Part shown: one piece after another, positions 3,037-42,000 of the stretch
How the letters are laid out: each line of letters starts with the position of its first letter
Numbering within the stretch: position 1 is the stretch's first letter
From: a phage
Reading direction: 5' to 3' (one strand)
Sequence record: PZ445429.1
DNA: 64,000 bases
Position numbers and translations under genes: made by a program
Notes under the pieces: generated by a model
Told to the model about the DNA's origin: nothing
Database searches by the model: none
What the model saw: the letters and a program-made list of their open reading frames with translations, nothing else

Positions 3037-5367
3037 ATGAGCCATCGCATCGAAAAAGTAATTAAACGTGACGGTACTGTTCAGGACTTTGCTCCTGAAA
3101 AACTCAATGATTGGGCTGCATGGGCATGTAAAGATACTGACGTAAGTTGGTCTGCCGTAGTTATGGCTGCCCTGAAAAATCTACCCAAAGGTGTTGTAGA
3201 TTCCGATACACTCCAAGATGTGTTAATTAAAGCTGCTGAAGGTCTTATCAAAGACAATCCAGCATATGATACTGTAGCAAAGGAATTACGTCTTGCGCAG
3301 ATGCGTAAACGCCTCTATGATTCCTTCGAACCACCTTCTCTACGTTTCTTCCACGATCATATGGTTCGTGTCGGCGCTTGGGAAGACATGAGTGCATGGA
3401 TTAGCGATGATCAGTTTGACGCTCTGAACCAAGTTATTGATCATGATCGCGATCGTTTATTCACCAGTGGTGGACTGAAACAGTTCTTCGACAAGTATTC
3501 CCGTCGTAATATTGCAACTGGTGAAATTTATGAAACCCCGCAGTTTGCCTACATGGGTATGGCAATGGCGATGCTATCTCAACCTAACTGGACAATTCTC
3601 GATGCAATCGACCTCTACAACGCAATGTCACTCCATAAAATCAACGTGCCGACTCCACCTCTCGTGGGTCTTAGGAGCAGCGACCGCGGTTTTGCTTCTT
3701 GTTGTCTTGTTGATAGTACTGATACCCTCGATTCAATCGACACAGCCGAGCACATCGTCTTCAAAATGGTCGCAGCCAGAGCGGGAATCGGGTATCATCT
3801 TGAAAGCCGATCAATTGCTGATCCGGTGCGAAATGGGGCATTCCCGCATTCCGGAAAACTGCCATATTATCGACACATTGACCGATCAGTAAAAGCTAAC
3901 ACTCAGCAAACCCGTGGTGGTTCTGCTACTGTGTCTTACCCATACTTCGATCCTGAAATCATTCAGTTGATGCAGGTTAAGCAGCAACGTGCTACAGACG
4001 AGAATAAAATCGATAAGATGGATTACTCTCTGAGCTTTAACAACCTTCTGTTAAAACGTTACCTGAAAAATGAAGATATTACGCTAATGTCCTACTTCTA
4101 CGCACCAGAAGTTCATGAAGCGTTTTATGGCGAAGATGAGGCTAAGTTTGAAGAAATCTACGTGGCAGCGGAGAAACGTGTGGCATCTCTTACAAAGATC
4201 GACCACGAAGGAAAAACAATTCCAGCAGCTCCTAGAATCTCTGCAAAAGAAATCCTAGATACTTGGTTACGTATCCGTATGGAAACAGGGCGTATGTATG
4301 CTCATCACATTGGTGAATCTAACCGTCATGGTAACTTCCTTGACCCGATTCGTATGACCAACCTTTGTGTTGAAATTACTCAGCCAACCCGTCCATTCCA
4401 TCACATTACGGAGCTGTATAAGACCCAAGATCAGTTAGACGATATGCGTCCAGAAGATATTGGTGAAGTATCTCTGTGTAACTTAGGTGGTGTTGTACTA
4501 GGTCGTATGGAATCTCTGGCTGAATGGGAGAAAACTTGCTACATTCTTCTGAAATTCGTTGATACAATCATCGAGATTCAGGATTACCCATTCCCAACTA
4601 TGGAGTACACGGCTAAGAAACGTCGTAACGTTGGTATTGGTCTGATGAACGCAGCAGGTGCAATGGCAGCAGAAGGTTTGGCTTACGAAGGTGTTGAAGC
4701 CCGTAACTGGATTCACCGTGAAGCTGAAAAGCTGTCCTACTTCCTACATAAAGCCTCTGTACGTCTGGCTAAAGAACAAGGTGCATGTGACTGGTTTAAT
4801 CGTACTAAGCCTTCGCAAGGAACTCTGGTAATCGACACGTACAAGAAAACTGTTGATGAACTGGTAACTGTAGGTCTAGAAATGGATTGGGAATCTCTGC
4901 GTGCAGATATTCTGAAATATGGTATGCGCAACTCTGTTCTGACTGCTCAGATGCCAGGTGAAAGTTCCTCTGTACTGCTAGGTGTTACTAACTCTATCGA
5001 ACCGCCCCGTAAGATCGTATCTATCAAGGGTAGTGCAGTGAATAAAGTAATTGCAATTGCTCCAGGTGCAACTGATTGGGATACATTAATGAGCTATAAA
5101 CTGGCTTATGATGTAGATCGTATCGAGTGGATCAAATGGGTAGCAACCATGCAGAAATTCTTCAGCCAGTCTATCAGTACGAATATGTACTATGACTACA
5201 CCAAGTTCGAGAATGAAATCATTCCCGGCCCAGTAGTAGTTCGTGACTTTATGACTGCTGTTAAGTACGGTTGGAAAACTTGGTACTACGCTAACTTCAA
5301 CACTGAAAATGGTGGTGGAGCTGGTGAAGAAGCAGCAGGTTGTGCATCAGGTGGTTGTAACCTATAA
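3037..5367 (+). CDS. nrdA: ribonucleoside-diphosphate reductase alpha subunit (class Ia)
   Basis: ATP-cone VIKRDG at N-terminus, catalytic NLCVEI region, C-terminal Cys pair, 776 aa; start moved to ATG 3037 with RBS AAGGAAAG. Confidence 0.95.
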   Translation: MSHRIEKVIKRDGTVQDFAPEKLNDWAAWACKDTDVSWSAVVMAALKNLPKGVVDSDTLQDVLIKAAEGLIKDNPAYDTVAKELRLAQMRKRLYDSFEPPSLRFFHDHMVRVGAWEDMSAWISDDQFDALNQVIDHDRDRLFTSGGLKQFFDKYSRRNIATGEIYETPQFAYMGMAMAMLSQPNWTILDAIDLYNAMSLHKINVPTPPLVGLRSSDRGFASCCLVDSTDTLDSIDTAEHIVFKMVAARAGIGYHLESRSIADPVRNGAFPHSGKLPYYRHIDRSVKANTQQTRGGSATVSYPYFDPEIIQLMQVKQQRATDENKIDKMDYSLSFNNLLLKRYLKNEDITLMSYFYAPEVHEAFYGEDEAKFEEIYVAAEKRVASLTKIDHEGKTIPAAPRISAKEILDTWLRIRMETGRMYAHHIGESNRHGNFLDPIRMTNLCVEITQPTRPFHHITELYKTQDQLDDMRPEDIGEVSLCNLGGVVLGRMESLAEWEKTCYILLKFVDTIIEIQDYPFPTMEYTAKKRRNVGIGLMNAAGAMAAEGLAYEGVEARNWIHREAEKLSYFLHKASVRLAKEQGACDWFNRTKPSQGTLVIDTYKKTVDELVTVGLEMDWESLRADILKYGMRNSVLTAQMPGESSSVLLGVTNSIEPPRKIVSIKGSAVNKVIAIAPGATDWDTLMSYKLAYDVDRIEWIKWVATMQKFFSQSISTNMYYDYTKFENEIIPGPVVVRDFMTAVKYGWKTWYYANFNTENGGGAGEEAAGCASGGCNL

Positions 5368-14746: not shown

Positions 14747-14917
14747 TGAAATCAGTTGTAATTATTGGTGTTAATACTCGTGGTATCCGTACTACGAAAA
14801 CAGTTAAAACTACTAACGTTGCTGAAATTACTACAAACCCTAAGAAGTTTGATTTCGCCAAAGTCTCAGCAGTTATGACAGAACAATCTTTTAACCAAGC
14901 ACTGGGAATTAAATAAT
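14747..14917 (+). CDS. small ORF (56 aa), not in track
   Basis: promoter 14687-14714 and RBS GAGAGGAAG precede ATG 14747. Confidence 0.4.
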
Positions 14918-15359
14918 GGAAGAGAATATTCTAGATGTTTTGCGTAGGGCTTTGCAGGAATCTAAGGTTGATGGTTCTGATAAAGAAGTAGCTAAAAGCT
15001 ACCAGACCATAATCGGAGATCTTCAGCGTGTTGATAAAGACTTCATTACTTCTGAACAGTTTGTATCTTATCTAAAAGCTCAACTGAAAAGCATTAATCA
15101 GACGAAAGCTAAACTTCACGGTCAAGACCTCGATAATTATAGCTTGCAGTCTGCTCAGTATGAATATATACTGAACAAATGGTTACAGCAGTATTTGCCT
15201 CCTCAGCTATCTGATTCTGAGATTCGCAAATACTTTGCAGAATTAGTTAAGTTGAACCCTGGGATTACAAAAGGTATGCTGATGAAAGCGATTAAGGAAG
15301 AGTTTCCTGGTCGTTACGACGGTGGCATTGCTGCTCAGGTTGCTGGCGAATTTAATTAA
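14916..15359 (+). CDS. hypothetical protein (147 aa)
   Basis: ORF overlapping previous stop (ATGA-type coupling). Confidence 0.5.
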   Translation: MEENILDVLRRALQESKVDGSDKEVAKSYQTIIGDLQRVDKDFITSEQFVSYLKAQLKSINQTKAKLHGQDLDNYSLQSAQYEYILNKWLQQYLPPQLSDSEIRKYFAELVKLNPGITKGMLMKAIKEEFPGRYDGGIAAQVAGEFN

Positions 15360-15367
15360 AAATTGAT

Positions 15368-15396
15368 TTGCTAAACGCCTCAAAATTCTGTATAAT
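15368..15396 (+). promoter_or_regulatory. early promoter TTGCTA-N17-TATAAT
   Basis: family consensus. Confidence 0.6.
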
Positions 15397-15402
15397 AGAT
15401 TC

Positions 15403-15885
15403 ATGAAAAGGAAAGAATACCCTACTAAAGAAATACTTGAAAAATATTTTGTAGCTGATCCTGATAATGGGATACTATATAGGAAAACAAAGAAAGGTTT
15501 GAAAGAGTGTTGTGCCAATAATAAGAAATCACATCCAGATGTGGGATTTCAGGGCGACACCTATCAACTGCATGTCTTATTATTTATTATGTACTATGGA
15601 TATAGGCCTGAAGAAGTAGATCATAAGGATACTAATCCTAGAAATAATAGGAAAAATAATCTAAGGGACGCCTCTAGATCGCAAAATAATGCGAATAGAA
15701 ACCAACAATGCAATAATACTTCTGGGTACAAAGGAGTAAGTTGGGAAGGCTCTTCCTGGAGATACCAAGTAAGACATGAAGGAAAAAATTACAGTAAAAG
15801 AGGGTTTAAAACTGCGGAAGAGGCTTTCGAGGCCTCTAAGATATTAAGAGAATCCTTACATAAAGAATTTACTAACTTTGGTTAG
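15403..15885 (+). CDS. HNH homing endonuclease
   Basis: YYGYRPEEVDHKDTNPRNNRKNNLR...GYKGVSW (HNH plus AP2-like DNA-binding motif); promoter 15368-15396. Confidence 0.7.
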   Translation: MKRKEYPTKEILEKYFVADPDNGILYRKTKKGLKECCANNKKSHPDVGFQGDTYQLHVLLFIMYYGYRPEEVDHKDTNPRNNRKNNLRDASRSQNNANRNQQCNNTSGYKGVSWEGSSWRYQVRHEGKNYSKRGFKTAEEAFEASKILRESLHKEFTNFG

Positions 15886-16513
15886 TAATAGTGGGGTGCC
15901 GAAACCACTTATGTAACAACACTGCCGTCCTAGTATAATAGGTATTATTAGGGCTTCACCGCCTGAAGATGTGGGTTCGAGTCCCACGGTCGGAAAGAGT
16001 TGGATAACTGGTGCTTCTAATGGCGAAGCAATCGCAGGCAGTTGCGCACTGCCAAAACCACGCGGTAGTTGGTTCCAGGCTAACCAACCACTCTTGAAAA
16101 GTATATACTATGGTTTTGCTTGTTCAAGAAGCTTCGCATCGAAAATCGGAGGTGCGATTTTATCCGACCGCGTGGAGGACGTCTCTCCGTTAAGTGACGA
16201 AAAGTGGGACGATTCAGGTAGAGCTGGATATGGAACACCTATACATATGCGGAGTGCGCACAAAGCATATTGCGGTGGTACTAAACGAAATTAGGAGTCA
16301 TGACCTGCACAAGTTTAGTATGTCATAACCGATGTACATTCAGTACAAAAACCACTGAAGCTAAGATAGATAGTCACCTTGACTTAAACTGGAAGATATT
16401 GTCTGACGGAAGGGCTGCAGAGCTTAATCTGAGGGGGCTGACCCTACCTACCGTCGGGTATCTTTAAGAGCTTTTATAAGAGTTCTTAAAAATACCTAAC
16501 AAAAGGAATCAAT
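15886..16513 (+). ncRNA. ~630-nt ORF-poor GC-richer segment with tRNA-like T-arm and hairpins (candidate structured RNA)
   Basis: GUGGG-UUCGAGU-CCCAC T-arm at ~15971-15988, hairpin GGCAGUUGCGCACUGCC, long-range complementarity GGUCGG(15990)/CCGACC(16166); only a low-quality 107-aa ORF. Confidence 0.25.
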
Positions 16514-17023
16514 ATGAATCTAGGAACAACTTGTATCTTTGATCATCAAGAAATGTGTTGCCCTCGTATTCTGCATATAGCACACTTCTCCGAACGATTG
16601 ACGCTTGATCAAGCTCGTGAGAAAATGAGTGAGATTACAGGATACAATCTTCGAGAAGGTGAATACTTTAGCGTAGCTTTGGATTATATCGACAATACTC
16701 GTCTTTATCACTTAGTTCAGCTTGGTGAAGAAACTGAGGAAGTAAAAATGGCGAAAGATACATTACGTCGTTATCGCCCTCAGATTCTAGAGCGTACACT
16801 TCGTGGAGAGCCTAGTGATTACTTCTATATGCGTTGCTATGACGCAGATGCTACTCAATATGTTAATCTAAATCGCTTCTATCATGATGTGAATGATTTT
16901 CTGGACAAGAAATATGATGAATTAATCATAGCATCCAAAGCACAACGTGCCGCTAGAAATGCTGAAAAGGCTGCTAAAGAAGCTGTAGAAAGCCAAACTA
17001 AATTGAACGAAATCATTAAGTAA
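16514..17023 (+). CDS. hypothetical protein (169 aa)
   Basis: ORF with RBS AAAGGAA. Confidence 0.5.
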   Translation: MNLGTTCIFDHQEMCCPRILHIAHFSERLTLDQAREKMSEITGYNLREGEYFSVALDYIDNTRLYHLVQLGEETEEVKMAKDTLRRYRPQILERTLRGEPSDYFYMRCYDADATQYVNLNRFYHDVNDFLDKKYDELIIASKAQRAARNAEKAAKEAVESQTKLNEIIK

Positions 17024-17031
17024 TCAACTTT

Positions 17032-17106
17032 CGGGGTGTAGTCTAAAGGAGAGGCAGGAGTCTTCTAAATTCCTTTATGCAGGTTCGAATCCTGTCACCT
17101 CGGCCA
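17032..17106 (+). tRNA. tRNA-Arg (anticodon UCU)
   Basis: cloverleaf by hand: acceptor CGGGGUG/CACCUCG, anticodon loop CUUCUAA, T-loop UUCGAAU, encoded CCA. Confidence 0.7.
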
Positions 17107-17139
17107 ATTTTATTAACTGTAATTAAACAAAGGAAATAT

Positions 17140-18084
17140 ATGTTTACTAAAAACACTAAAGAACTGACTTCTGAGCAAAAAGTAATTCGCACTATCAAAC
17201 GTTGGGGTGTTGGTGCTGTATTTGGTCTTGGCGCTATTATTCTGGCTCTCAATTCCTACACAGTTGTTCAGGATGGTACTGTTAAGACTCAAACCTTCCT
17301 GGGTAAAGTTAGCCCGAACCCTGTACTGCCCGGCTTCCATATTGTTAACCCATTTGCTTCTTTTGATACTTTTAGTACGAAAGATATTTCTATGAAACTG
17401 GATAAACTTCAGGTTCCTAGCCAGGATAAGTTTAAGTCTACTGTTGACATTACCGTTATGTTGCAGTTTGATGGTGCTAAAGCTCCTATGAACCGTGTTA
17501 ACGCAGGTACTCAGGATCAGGCTCTGAACAAGTACGTTGAAGAGAAGATGCTATCTACGATTCGTGAGTTTGGTAAGTCTGTACCAAAAGCACAAGATCT
17601 GTTCGACGCTAAGATTCAGGCTCAACTGCAAACTGCTATTCAGCAAGAAGTAGAAGAGTATGCGCGTCCTTATGGTTACACCGTTAAGCAAGTATTCCTT
17701 CAGGATATTACTCTGCCACCGGTAATCATGGAACAGGTACAGAACACCAAAGTTCGTGAAGAACAAGTTAACGCTGCAAAAGCTGAACTGGCTCGTGTTG
17801 AACAAGAAGCACAGCAGAAAGTTAAGCAAGCTGAGGCAGATCGTTCCGCTCGTGAAAACATGGCAGTAGCTAACGAACGTGACGCAGATGCTAAACTGTA
17901 CGCAGCTAAGAAAGAAGCTGAAGCTAACGCCGCTCTGCAACGTACCATTACTCCTGAAATGATTCGTTGGAAGCAGCTGGAAGTTGAAATGCTTCGTGCT
18001 GAAAAATACCAAGGTGGTGTACCGCAGACTGTTGTTGGTACTGGCTATGATGGTCAAATGATCATGGATATGCGTAACAAGTAA
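17140..18084 (+). CDS. SPFH/band-7 (prohibitin-like) membrane protein
   Basis: N-terminal TM helix then SPFH-like core and long Ala/Glu/Gln-rich coiled coil; start moved to ATG 17140 because track N-terminus overlaps a tRNA. Confidence 0.55.
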   Translation: MFTKNTKELTSEQKVIRTIKRWGVGAVFGLGAIILALNSYTVVQDGTVKTQTFLGKVSPNPVLPGFHIVNPFASFDTFSTKDISMKLDKLQVPSQDKFKSTVDITVMLQFDGAKAPMNRVNAGTQDQALNKYVEEKMLSTIREFGKSVPKAQDLFDAKIQAQLQTAIQQEVEEYARPYGYTVKQVFLQDITLPPVIMEQVQNTKVREEQVNAAKAELARVEQEAQQKVKQAEADRSARENMAVANERDADAKLYAAKKEAEANAALQRTITPEMIRWKQLEVEMLRAEKYQGGVPQTVVGTGYDGQMIMDMRNK

Positions 18085-24257: not shown

Positions 24258-24332
24258 GCACCTTTAGCTGAGATGGATTAGCGCTTGCCTGAAGAGCTTG
24301 AGAGGTTGGATCGTTACCAACGGGGTGCACCA
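24258..24332 (+). tRNA. tRNA, anticodon unresolved (non-canonical T-loop AUCGUUA)
   Basis: acceptor GCACCUU/GGGGUGC plus CCA; anticodon arm could not be folded cleanly by hand. Confidence 0.35.
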
Positions 24333-29009: not shown

Positions 29010-29101
29010 GGAAGAGCAAATCGATAGGTGACGAAAACCGCTTGGAAAGTGGCTGACTTGTTAAAGCAGGCTTGAGAGTTCGAATCTCTCTTCTTCCGCC
29101 A
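29010..29101 (+). tRNA. tRNA-Ser (anticodon GGA by best fold), type II, 92 nt
   Basis: acceptor GGAAGAG/UUCUUCC, D-stem UCG/CGA, anticodon loop UUGGAAA, ~20-nt variable arm, T-loop UUCGAAU, CCA. Confidence 0.45.
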
Positions 29102-40756: not shown

Positions 40757-41137
40757 TTGAATTACGCATATCTTATAATACATAACAACGTGGTCTGTGG
40801 TACTCGAGCTGTAGAGATGGGAATCACAGAAGAAAAGTATAACTCTTTGTCTAAATCGGAGCAAGAATACTATGTTGAACAGGCTGCTTGGGAATATGCT
40901 GAGGCTTATCCCGAAGAACGTGAAGGCCGTGTTACTATTGTTGTTACTTTGGGACTGGTGGGCTGTGATACCGAAGTTGATACAGATCTAGAAACACTTG
41001 AAGAATGGGAAGAATTGGATATTGCAGAACAAAATGCTATCATCCGTCAATCTTTCTGGGAAGCAGTAGACTGTCACGTTGTCTTTGAGCCAAATGATAC
41101 AGAAGCTGAAAAACACACTAATTGGATGACTCGATAA
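40757..41137 (+). CDS. hypothetical acidic protein (126 aa)
   Basis: TTG start after RBS GAGAGGAG. Confidence 0.4.
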   Translation: MNYAYLIIHNNVVCGTRAVEMGITEEKYNSLSKSEQEYYVEQAAWEYAEAYPEEREGRVTIVVTLGLVGCDTEVDTDLETLEEWEELDIAEQNAIIRQSFWEAVDCHVVFEPNDTEAEKHTNWMTR

Positions 41138-42000
41138 TGAAAAAAGAATTTAACCTGCACGAAATGTTAGTAGTACCAGACGATGTTAACCTGTTCTTCG
41201 TAGGAGATATTCACGGCTGTAATGATATGCTGGAAGGTGCTCTTAAACTAGCAGGATATAAAGAAAAGCGTGACTATGTTGTCTGTGTTGGCGACTTAAT
41301 TGACCGTGGCCCGCAGAACTTACAGGTTCTAGCCAAATTCTTATATAACCCACGCTTCCGCAGCGTTCGTGGCAACCATGATCAGTTTATGATTGCTGGT
41401 GACTACGCCAACTGGATGTATAATGGTGGAATGTGGGCAATGAATGATCTAGATACCGATACAATTAAAGGTATCGCAGAAGATATGGCAGTTAAAATGC
41501 CAGTATTCATGACTGTACTCCATCGTGGCAAGAAATATGGTGTTGTTCATGGTGGAATACCATTCCGATATAAAGATGCGGGATTAGATGTACATACACC
41601 TAATTGGGACGATATTATTGATCATATCGCTGCAAGTGAAAATGATCCTAATGATCATCCTAGTTATTACATTGAGCCATATCTATGGGATCGTGATGTA
41701 ATTCAGGAAATTGGTTTTCATCTGTCTAAGCAAGGTGCAGAGCACCCCTATTTCCAGCGTTATGCAGGATTTAAAGATGAACTGACTGTGGAAGTGCCAG
41801 AAGTTGAAAGTGTAGATTTCGTATTCCATGGTCACACTGGTGTTCCTTACCCAATTCTGTACAAGAACCGTGTTTATCTCGATACTGGCGGTGTTTTCAA
41901 CGGGCAGTTGACGGTTGCGCAACTTAATGATGAAGCCGGTAAAATCATGACATTTACCACAGATAAAAATGATAGCTGTGGTATACAGAGGATTCTATAA
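41137..42000 (+). CDS. Ser/Thr protein phosphatase (PPP-family metallophosphoesterase)
   Basis: GDIHG ... GDLIDRG ... GNHD motifs. Confidence 0.7.
   Translation: MKKEFNLHEMLVVPDDVNLFFVGDIHGCNDMLEGALKLAGYKEKRDYVVCVGDLIDRGPQNLQVLAKFLYNPRFRSVRGNHDQFMIAGDYANWMYNGGMWAMNDLDTDTIKGIAEDMAVKMPVFMTVLHRGKKYGVVHGGIPFRYKDAGLDVHTPNWDDIIDHIAASENDPNDHPSYYIEPYLWDRDVIQEIGFHLSKQGAEHPYFQRYAGFKDELTVEVPEVESVDFVFHGHTGVPYPILYKNRVYLDTGGVFNGQLTVAQLNDEAGKIMTFTTDKNDSCGIQRIL

Follow-up and report, generated by a model that had tools for sequence, protein, structure and literature searches.

The 628-nucleotide (nt) segment at positions 15886..16513 on the plus strand of sequence record PZ445429.1 is best explained as encoding a large non-coding RNA with a structure of several domains, the orthologue in an Epseptimavirus-like phage of the RNA that is named RNAX in phages T5 and BF23. 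The record comes from a T5-like Salmonella phage of the family Demerecviridae, called the source phage below, and its whole stretch of 64,000 nt is referred to as the window. We give this explanation, including the maturation, the contact between motifs B4 and B6 and the role in trans that are proposed below, a probability of roughly three in four. The segment starts at the first base past the stop codon of an HNH endonuclease gene and ends at the last base ahead of the ATG at 16514; according to the list of open reading frames (ORFs) it lies between genes and not inside one. Comparisons with T5 and BF23 rnaX by blastn and nhmmer identified it as a homologue consisting of three modules, D1 to D3, and a terminal hairpin.

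Among phage genomes, blastn found 525 records with a match to the segment; Salmonella Epseptimavirus phages such as S126, bux and vaffelhjerte are 98-99% identical to it over the 628 nt. In two of the records, T5 (AY543070) and BF23 (NC_042564), the depositors annotated the DNA that matches as "rnaX: RNAX, stable RNA with unknown functions". The T5 feature occupies 40848-41566 of AY543070 (719 nt), and that of BF23, in the tRNA-region record NC_042564, is 784 nt long. Both features span from "promoter P16-17" to the first base of the transfer RNA (tRNA) gene tRNA-Arg(UCU), with no ORF inside. In the other records the region is blank, or is labelled as tRNA-Sec, tRNA-OTHER, tRNA-Pro, trna-Undet or a coding sequence (CDS) for a hypothetical protein. 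Against the two rnaX genes, blastn aligned positions 2-217 of the query with 81% identity (217 nt) and positions 485-614, the 3' 130 nt, with 72%. A profile built for nhmmer aligned the RNA end to end in 45 loci. BF23 was aligned over the whole length (E about 1e-148). The alignment of T5 is split in two (E 3e-115 and 2e-24), a consequence of its second copy of motif B6. The conserved blocks extend from the 5' AGUGGGGUG to the 3' hairpin UUUAAGAGC...GUUCUUAAA, so that homology reaches beyond the tRNA-like part.

The order of neighbours is also shared. In the source phage, T5 and BF23 a YqeY-like gene, a sigma-70 promoter, RNAX and tRNA-Arg(UCU) follow each other on one strand. In the window the YqeY-like gene lies at 14916-15359 on the plus strand (Pfam YqeY, 25.4 bits, just below the 27-bit cut-off). 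The tRNA-Arg(UCU) gene, the conserved downstream neighbour, lies at 17032..17106, plus strand (ARAGORN; 50.5 bits in Rfam); its 5' end corresponds to the annotated 3' end of RNAX in T5. ARAGORN found 28 tRNA genes downstream of the segment in the source phage. Relative to T5 the source phage has two insertions, the HNH ORF and an ORF of 169 amino acids (aa). Judged by homology, synteny and the non-coding character set out below, the segment is a member of the T5/BF23 rnaX family. It shares with the two annotated genes an end-to-end homology that includes 81% identity in D1 and the conservation of B4, B5, B6 and the terminal hairpin. It differs from them in having an HNH ORF in place of domain D0, a D2 of the Pectobacterium type, a middle module that T5 does not have, and the 169-aa ORF.

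How widely is this RNA distributed? We collected 49 full-length copies from Tequintavirus, Epseptimavirus, Sugarlandvirus (Klebsiella phages) and Hongcheonvirus (Pectobacterium phages) and from 7 metagenome contigs. The core of D1, D2, D3 and terminal hairpin is present in the same order in 49/49 of these, and the length from D1 to the end varies from 584 to 903 nt. The gene looks confined to virulent T5-like Demerecviridae of Enterobacterales. RNAX is missing from Vibrio phage Thalassa, which was reached through its YqeY protein; the Pectobacterium copy, used as a blastn query, led to no additional families; and the pattern of the 3' hairpin had 0 matches in 185,579 bacterial and archaeal species genomes. 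A stricter hairpin pattern gave 32 matches in IMG/VR, all of them T5-like isolates, plus the 7 metagenome contigs, and no new clades. An earlier IMG/VR pattern, TTTAAGN{8,14}GAGTTCTTAAA, had been dropped as too loose, its matches being mostly chance. Providencia phage PR1 has a recognisable D1 within an ORF-free stretch of about 700 nt (nhmmer E 5e-9), in which helices P1 and P2 covary.

In PR1 (locus L139) this stretch, at 3770-4468 and with its own promoter, holds D1 at its 3' end (4265-4445) without the tRNA-like element, and a separate T-arm-like sequence, GAGAGGUUCGAUUCCUCC, is found upstream of D1 at about 4036-4054. The region may be a rearranged RNAX, and the minus-strand CDS PR1_88 annotated in it is probably spurious.

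The properties of the segment itself are those of a structured RNA. Its GC content is 0.45-0.48 over 15850-16450 compared with 0.33-0.39 in flanking intervals of 300 nt. The plus strand has a minimum free energy of -192.5 kcal/mol against -169.5 +/- 5.4 for shuffled sequences (z = -4.3); for the minus strand z = -2.95. Conserved G.U pairs are numerous, and since these pairs, the orientation of the promoter and the tRNA-like element all indicate the plus strand, we take this strand as the functional one. The promoter, TTGCTA-17-TATAAT at 15368..15396 on the plus strand, is an early promoter of sigma-70 type, agrees at 10/12 positions and precedes the HNH ORF. Its orthologue in T5 and BF23 is "P16-17", which drives rnaX; the same promoter sequence is annotated directly upstream of rnaX in T5 and BF23, and it is kept in 19/19 phages examined. 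The promoter scan found no promoter within 15886-16513, and no terminator-like site was found in 15200-17200.

The original prediction, made from the letters alone, had described a segment richer in GC than its surroundings, with no unit of promoter, ribosome-binding site and ORF beyond a poor 107-aa ORF, and with a perfect T-arm (GUGGG-UUCGAGU-CCCAC), stable hairpins and long-range complementary blocks. These observations were borne out: besides the GC contrast just given, no promoter lies inside, neither the 107-aa nor a further 55-aa ORF has a Pfam match, the T-arm is located at 15971-15987 inside a cloverleaf, the segment folds better than its shuffles, and the long-range helices P1 and P2 are backed by covariation. 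Among the candidates it had offered, a large stable RNA agrees with the orthology to a depositor-annotated stable RNA of T5 and BF23 and with the conserved, covarying structure of the plus strand.

A whole-length RNAalifold prediction on a MAFFT alignment was too gappy, the modules differing between phages, and the domains were analysed separately. Domain D1 (15891..16061, plus strand, as are all elements of the RNA described here) was examined in alignment A1 of 22 distinct sequences. Its 33 pairs have 95.5% of cells paired against 29-44% in slid controls, and 18/33 pairs were changed on both sides, a number that 0/500 shuffles reached. The domain is closed by helix P1, in which GUGG 15891-94 pairs with CCAC 16058-61. 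Covariation supports this helix: GUGG/CCAC is found as AUGG/CCAU in YZU-L1, as ACGG/CCGU in Pectobacterium phages and as AUGGG/CCCAU in Providencia phage PR1. Inside D1, the three-part helix P2 joins 15904-17 with 15999-16012 (8/12 pairs compensatory), hairpins P3 and P4 occupy 16013-29 and 16037-53, and a conserved joiner, GGGGUGCCGAA, could be read from the domain. A short helix P1a, CGA(A) 15900-03 with (A)UCG 16031-34, was read by eye; it appears as CGAA/UUCG, and as GGAA/UUCC with a register shift of 1 nt in the T5 clade, and probably forms a three-way junction with P2 and P3. A local hairpin AGUGG/CCACU (15890-15909) was rejected, covariation favouring the long-range partners of P1 and P2.

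Domain D2 (16203..16356) was folded by RNAalifold from five sequences of the same D2 type, including those of Pectobacterium phages DU_PP_V and My1. A closing helix, AGUGG 16203-07 with CCACU 16352-56, is supported by covariation, differing at three pairs in Pectobacterium phages (CACGG/CCGUG). The domain contains inner hairpins at 16212-29 and 16236-77, a long helix of GUACUAAAC 16278-86 with GUUUAGUAU 16313-21, and a hairpin UGUAC-AUUCA-GUACA at 16333-47. Two-sided changes preserve 13/42 of its pairs. D2 exists in at least four types among the phages, and that of the source phage is the type of Pectobacterium phages, not of T5.

Domain D3 (16392..16465) consists of helix P-y, GAAGAUA 16392-98 with UAUCUUU 16459-65, helix P-x, UCUGACGG 16402-09 with CCGUCGGG 16451-58, and hairpins at 16412-25 and 16432-45 with a conserved UUAAU between them. 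In alignment A2, D3 and the terminal hairpin together have 90.4% of cells paired, compared with 32-50% in slid controls, and 10/35 pairs are compensatory. At one position of P-y, 14 sequences have a G-C pair and 6 an A-U pair; in P-x, 3 pairs are compensatory. The terminal hairpin, UUUAAGAGC-loop-GUUCUUAAA at 16463..16490, can be extended by GUAU 16458-61 with AUAC 16492-95. It is the most conserved block of the RNA, with about 95% identity between E. coli and Pectobacterium phages, and all of its cells (100%) are paired; one change is compensatory and several affect one side only. The SenS3 variant AAGAGUUC/GAACUCUU preserves the stem. The lower part of this stem and P-y compete for 16459-65, and the covariation fits either. 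In T5 the hairpin ends 5 nt ahead of tRNA-Arg and probably stabilises the 3' end of RNAX.

One strictly conserved loop belongs to the apical hairpin B4 within D2 (16294..16305), where GG/CC encloses the 8-nt loop AGUCAUGA (16296-16303). The loop is invariant, the motif G[GA]AGUCAUGACC being present in 49/49 full-length copies, and the outer stem around it is found with five or more different sequences that all remain complementary. A partial My1 copy outside the 49-sequence set reads GGGAGUCAUGCCCC at B4. Motif B6 (16372..16390), an AGUCA-CCU-UGACU hairpin followed by UAAACUGG, is kept in 48/49 sequences. Its UGACU is complementary to the B4 loop, with 5 base pairs (bp; AGUCA with UGACU) in T5-type phages. 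In Pectobacterium phages B6 reads GCAUGACU, which can form 7 bp with loop AGUCAUGA in DU_PP_V and 8 bp with loop AGUCAUGC in My1. The A to C change of the My1 loop (AGUCAUGC) thus matches B6 GCAUGACU and breaks the self-complementarity of the loop.

The invariant loop also contains the self-complementary UCAUGA, the only hint of a homo-oligomeric assembly. Loop-loop kissing through this palindrome was considered and rejected: the My1 variant breaks the palindrome yet improves the complementarity to B6, and because of this variant we favour pairing of the loop with B6. By inference from these complementarities, read by eye, the B4 loop would pair with B6. The single copy of B6 in the source phage is matched by a single copy in BF23. 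T5 (locus L003) carries two, GUCACCUUGACUUAAACUGGAA and GUCACCUUGACAUAAACUGGAA, at 2968-2990 and 3055-3080 of its locus, about 85 nt apart.

Other parts of the RNA vary between phages. A linker hairpin, GGUAGUUGGUU-CCAGGCU-AACCAACCACU at 16064..16092, was read directly from the sequence; it is found in RNAX of the T5 type and of the source-phage type and is replaced in others. The middle module (16135..16172), a stem CGCAUC/GGUGCG around GAAAAUCGG, is missing from T5 and BF23. Its stem covaries when read by eye, CGCAUC/GGUGCG becoming CACAUC/GGUGUG in Klebsiella phages and ACAUAUC/GGUAUGU in 26175III and YZU-L1. The CGG of GAAAAUCGG could possibly pair with the CCG of a downstream GACCGCG and form an H-type pseudoknot.

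The stretch between the promoter and D1 also differs in length. It measures 40 nt in T5, 176-233 nt in BF23, phB7, oselot, 1-29, 26175III and YZU-L1, and 375-484 nt in S126, 1-23, phiR201, a Pectobacterium phage and Klebsiella phages. All these stretches, none of which holds an HNH gene, are ORF-free and share an RNA domain, D0, closed by AAAUUAGAGAA/UUCUCUAAUUU. T5 keeps only the closing helix, BF23 has the whole of D0, and some phages add a D1-like module, D0b. With D0 and D0b the RNA reaches up to about 1.35 kilobases (kb), as in Klebsiella phage KpnRe28. We observed that in the Sugarlandvirus phages (Klebsiella phage vB_KpnLmqsRe28-2, L011, at about 716-2066; also L012 and L013) about 1.27-1.35 kb without an ORF separate the promoter from the 3' end of RNAX. 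This stretch is made of D0, D0b and D1 to D3, includes three AAGUGGGA modules, and is longer than typical GOLLD RNAs.

From these data the following mechanism can be proposed. RNAX would be cut from a long early transcript on which it is co-transcribed with tRNA-Arg, and would be stabilised by its terminal stems. In T5, cleavage by RNase P at tRNA-Arg would generate the 3' end of RNAX just past the terminal hairpin. The invariant loop AGUCAUGA would then pair with UGACU of B6 and lock D2 onto D3, and the mature RNA would be neither a message nor a cis-regulator but a compact RNA particle with an action in trans. Its role, on which our confidence is low and which is suggested by analogy, might be that of an RNA scaffold or decoy linked to the tRNA of the phage and to its take-over of translation, in the niche that GOLLD and ROOL occupy. 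The tRNA-like elbow may serve as an optional handle for tRNA-binding factors.

Several points weigh against this explanation. In the source phage the RNA is flanked by ORFs of the same transcript, the HNH ORF upstream and the 169-aa ORF downstream, whose ribosome-binding site lies 8 nt past the hairpin; because these ORFs share the transcript, processing into a discrete RNA is an assumption for this phage. The designation as a stable RNA is taken solely from the GenBank note of T5 and BF23. The covariation of D2 amounts to essentially one independent contrast, between two clades, and the support for D3 is moderate, MAFFT misaligning its divergent members. Covariation counts in general overstate the number of independent events, as the homologues come from few related lineages, and P1a, the middle module and the pairing of the loop with B6 were read by eye. 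Finally, the covariance models of GOLLD and ROOL gave no match at E <= 5 in the loci of KpnRe28, Pectobacterium, Providencia, BF23 and oselot. No publication on the structure or function of RNAX was found in the literature, and the BF23 genome paper does not mention it. The DRT9 paper describes viable T5 deletions in the tRNA region.

Does the RNA belong to a known family? A scan with Infernal against Rfam 15, which the original prediction had suggested, was run on the whole window at the gathering threshold, on the locus, a 641-nt segment and a Klebsiella homologue at E <= 10, and on five loci at E <= 5. It returned only tRNA and matches at chance level, and GOLLD, ROOL, tmRNA, RNase P, introns, Y RNA and riboswitches were rejected on this ground. 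The models of GOLLD and ROOL also had no match at E <= 10 in the copies of the source phage and of Klebsiella phage KpGranit (L012). These two RNAs, which phages and prophages encode near tRNA islands, measure from 580 to more than 800 nt; they combine a conserved core with variable regions and long-range contacts mediated by loops, and the linker of GOLLD in some cases contains a tRNA (PMC12286853, PMC5737381). RNAX resembles them in being over 500 nt long, multi-junction and phage-encoded, in lying beside a tRNA island and in having a conserved core, variable regions, an embedded tRNA-like part in many copies and, as proposed here, a long-range contact made by a loop. It differs in its hosts, which are Enterobacterales infected by virulent T5-like phages, and in its construction as a string of separately closed modules. 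Since it fails the covariance models of both, RNAX may be regarded as at most their functional analogue.

The stable RNAs "species 1 and 2" (rnaC, rnaD) of the T4 tRNA cluster, about 120-140 nt long, are co-transcribed with phage tRNA genes and matured by the tRNA-processing machinery. They share with RNAX the character of phage-encoded stable RNAs and are far shorter. A bolder extension of the preferred explanation, which we consider possible and hold with no more than tentative belief, is that RNAX represents a new class of giant modular phage RNA (0.6-1.35 kb), the counterpart of GOLLD and ROOL in the T5 family. Long-range contacts of loops with strands would fold it into a defined, possibly oligomeric particle that acts in trans on the tRNA or translation machinery of the host or on tRNA-targeting immunity. 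Its modules, including the tRNA mimic, would be exchangeable, and a homing-endonuclease gene could even take the place of one.

The modular construction also admits the main alternative interpretation, namely a string of independent small RNAs. Processing would separate them, each would work on its own, perhaps as a decoy for one of several host defence or tRNA-targeting systems, and the locus would be an accessory cassette array of the arms race. Each module is closed by its own helix of the RYGG/CCRY type. Modules have been gained, lost, duplicated and swapped among close phages: T5 is without the interior of D0 and has B6 doubled, Klebsiella phages have three AAGUGGGA modules, D2 comes in its four or more types, D0 can be replaced by HNH, and the total length ranges over about 0.6-1.35 kb. 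However, one RNA of 719 or 784 nt is annotated in T5 and BF23, the loop of B4 is complementary to B6 in the next module, and the order of the core is the same in all 49 copies. We therefore regard separate small RNAs as unlikely and prefer a single molecule.

A lower probability still has to be assigned to a long cis-acting leader or processing platform, which would control how the 169-aa ORF is translated or how tRNA-Arg(UCU) and the tRNA operon are matured and dosed. The position of the segment between a promoter and downstream genes, with no terminator, is what such a leader would have. The 169-aa ORF (16514..17023, plus strand; no Pfam match) stands outside the RNA, between RNAX and tRNA-Arg, and its ribosome-binding site AAGGA (16503-07) follows the hairpin at 8 nt; tRNA-Arg always follows. 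This ORF is annotated in S126, CitS1, oselot and others. Yet it is missing in T5 and BF23, where RNAX abuts tRNA-Arg directly with no ORF between them, and different small ORFs take its place in Klebsiella phages, and the RNA is conserved in all of these. A multi-domain structure of 600-1350 nt is far above known leaders, the RNA is annotated as stable, and Rfam gave no match to a riboswitch, T-box or leader family. All this makes a cis-acting leader rather improbable.

The tRNA-like cloverleaf at the tip of P2 (15924..15995) is the part of the segment that databases recognise. It scores 33.0 bits with the tRNA model of Rfam, above the gathering score of 29, ARAGORN calls it "tRNA-SeC(tca)" at 15923-15996, and many records label it tRNA-Sec or tRNA-OTHER. 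Could the segment then be a decaying tRNA pseudogene, or a real opal-suppressor or selenocysteine tRNA, followed by non-functional spacer DNA? The acceptor stem, the GG of the D-loop and the T-arm are kept across the homologues, which score 29.3-39.6 bits with the same model, compared with 43-74 bits for real tRNAs at the same loci. The anticodon arm is abnormal, with a loop of 6 nt as Rfam aligns it or a closing G.G pair as ARAGORN reads it, and hypervariable, being fully different in the T5, Klebsiella and Pectobacterium homologues and carrying long inserts in Klebsiella phages and phB7. The UCA triplet is not conserved in the T5, BF23, Klebsiella and Pectobacterium homologues. The acceptor stem has two mismatches, G1.A72 and U5.U68, no CCA is encoded after 15995, and both flanks of the cloverleaf pair together in P2. 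In phages 1-29 and L144 an unrelated hairpin stands in its place, and in PR1 a short one.

Because of the hypervariable anticodon arm with its 6-nt loop, the mismatches, the missing CCA, the flanks held in P2 and the replacement in 1-29 and L144, the sequence comparison indicates that the cloverleaf is an accessory module of a larger RNA, not a decoding or suppressor tRNA and not a plain pseudogene. It covers 72 of 628 nt; the other 550 nt or so are conserved across three subfamilies of Demerecviridae with compensatory changes, which leaves a tRNA followed by spacer very improbable. Of the degenerate tRNA-derived element that the original prediction had listed as a second candidate, what stands is this optional module at the tip of P2, and for the remainder of the segment the idea does not hold. 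Like the embedded tRNA-like elements of tmRNA (its tRNA-like domain), YrlA and mascRNA, and like tRNA itself, the element has an acceptor stem, the GG of the D-loop and a canonical T-arm; it differs in that its ends continue into P2 and in being dispensable in some homologues. ARAGORN (permuted models included) and Rfam detected no tmRNA in the window, and Rfam no tmRNA or Y-RNA-like family in the segment.

Phage introns often carry HNH-type endonuclease genes, and the segment directly adjoins such a gene. The HNH_3 homing-endonuclease ORF of 160 aa (15403..15885, plus strand; Pfam HNH_3, E = 1.2e-11) begins with an ATG 7 nt past the -10 hexamer. Because of this short distance its messenger RNA is probably leaderless and without a Shine-Dalgarno sequence, and the cassette probably starts at +1 of the transcript. 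In the source phage and four others the HNH_3 ORF takes up the interval from the promoter to D1, whose length is 491 nt in every case. Its junctions, AGATTCAT/G... and ...TAGTAAT/AGTGGGG (the slash marks the joint), are identical in the five HNH phages with different D1 types. S126, 98% identical to the source phage in D1-D3, carries D0 and D0b at the position of the HNH ORF. By coordinates, fuchur (NC_048869 78060-78527) and vB_SenS_SB9 have another HNH allele, of 49% identity, directly ahead of RNAX, ending about 18 nt ahead of the start of the RNAX match. HNH paralogues are present at other loci and in unrelated phages. These occurrences suggest that the site between promoter and D1 is a recurrent target of homing endonuclease genes. 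The identical junctions, the D0 and D0b of S126 and the alleles and paralogues elsewhere argue that the HNH gene is a free-standing homing cassette, not the vehicle of the RNA, and that it displaced D0 of RNAX and uses its promoter.

The third candidate of the original prediction, that the segment is left over from a mobile intron brought in by the neighbouring HNH gene, finds no support; the cassette appears as a later insertion that replaced the first RNA domain. Models of group I and group II introns gave no match at E <= 10 and no flanking exons were seen. RNAX occurs without HNH in T5, BF23, oselot, 1-29 and the Klebsiella and Pectobacterium phages, and the sharp identical cassette junctions, the replaced RNA domain and the HNH paralogues at other loci point in the same direction. 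With phage group I introns that carry HNH or GIY-YIG genes, RNAX shares a structured RNA beside a mobile HNH gene of variable presence. It differs in being without intron core, exons and splicing context, and in that HNH replaces the 5' domain, not a peripheral loop. On this evidence it is hardly credible that the segment is what is left of an intron of group I or group II, or of some other mobile RNA element, that came in together with HNH.

The coding potential of the segment is small. Its only two sizeable ORFs on the plus strand are one of 107 aa with a GTG start (15971-16294) and one of 55 aa (16300-16467). Both were deposited as hypothetical proteins in vB_SenS-3 (MT004791), and the feature labels of the hit table indicate that the same two are apparently annotated as CDS in the PMBT phages. 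The 107-aa frame is shortened to 75 aa in a phage with 98% identity and is missing in phages with 82% and 77% identity and in T5. A conserved protein-coding frame in homologues, which according to the original prediction would speak against a functional RNA, was looked for, and no conserved ORF was found among the 42 homologues scanned. The domain alignments show that substitutions preserve base pairs, not codons. That the segment encodes a protein through one or both ORFs can be dismissed as next to impossible, these frames being broken in close relatives and missing in distant ones, with no Pfam match and with a GTG that lies inside the T-arm and has no ribosome-binding site. The B4 loop was also considered as a coding start with a Shine-Dalgarno sequence and AUG (GGAG-UC-AUG) and rejected, the downstream frame being unconserved and only 2-4 codons long in several phages. 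The spacer between the two elements in this loop is also too short.

Large, intricately folded RNAs of bacteria and phages are rare, and the roles of the phage-borne GOLLD and ROOL are still unknown. The classic T5 family carries an RNA that is comparable in size and occupies the same genomic niche, in front of a tRNA island, with an embedded tRNA-like element. RNAX is absent from Rfam, labelled as RNA in only two GenBank records and mislabelled in many others. It was thus already flagged, if barely, in the T5 record, and the source phage holds a new member with a variant architecture. T5 and E. coli are genetically tractable, and if the bolder extension given above is true, the role of large tRNA-island RNAs would be directly open to genetic tests. 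The HNH cassette, probably leaderless, that took the place of an RNA domain is an unusual case of a homing endonuclease colonising a non-coding RNA gene, and the gain, loss and swapping of RNAX domains deserve attention as well. If RNAX is dispensable and has no partner, the practical value would lie in the corrected annotation of several hundred phage genomes.

Two details of the tRNA array were noted in passing. Rfam reports a weak tRNA at 24258-24329 (33.4 bits) that is missing from the ARAGORN list, and ARAGORN a tRNA-Ser(gga) at 29010-29101 that is missing from the gathering-level list of Rfam. Both may be further degenerate or unusual tRNAs of the array.

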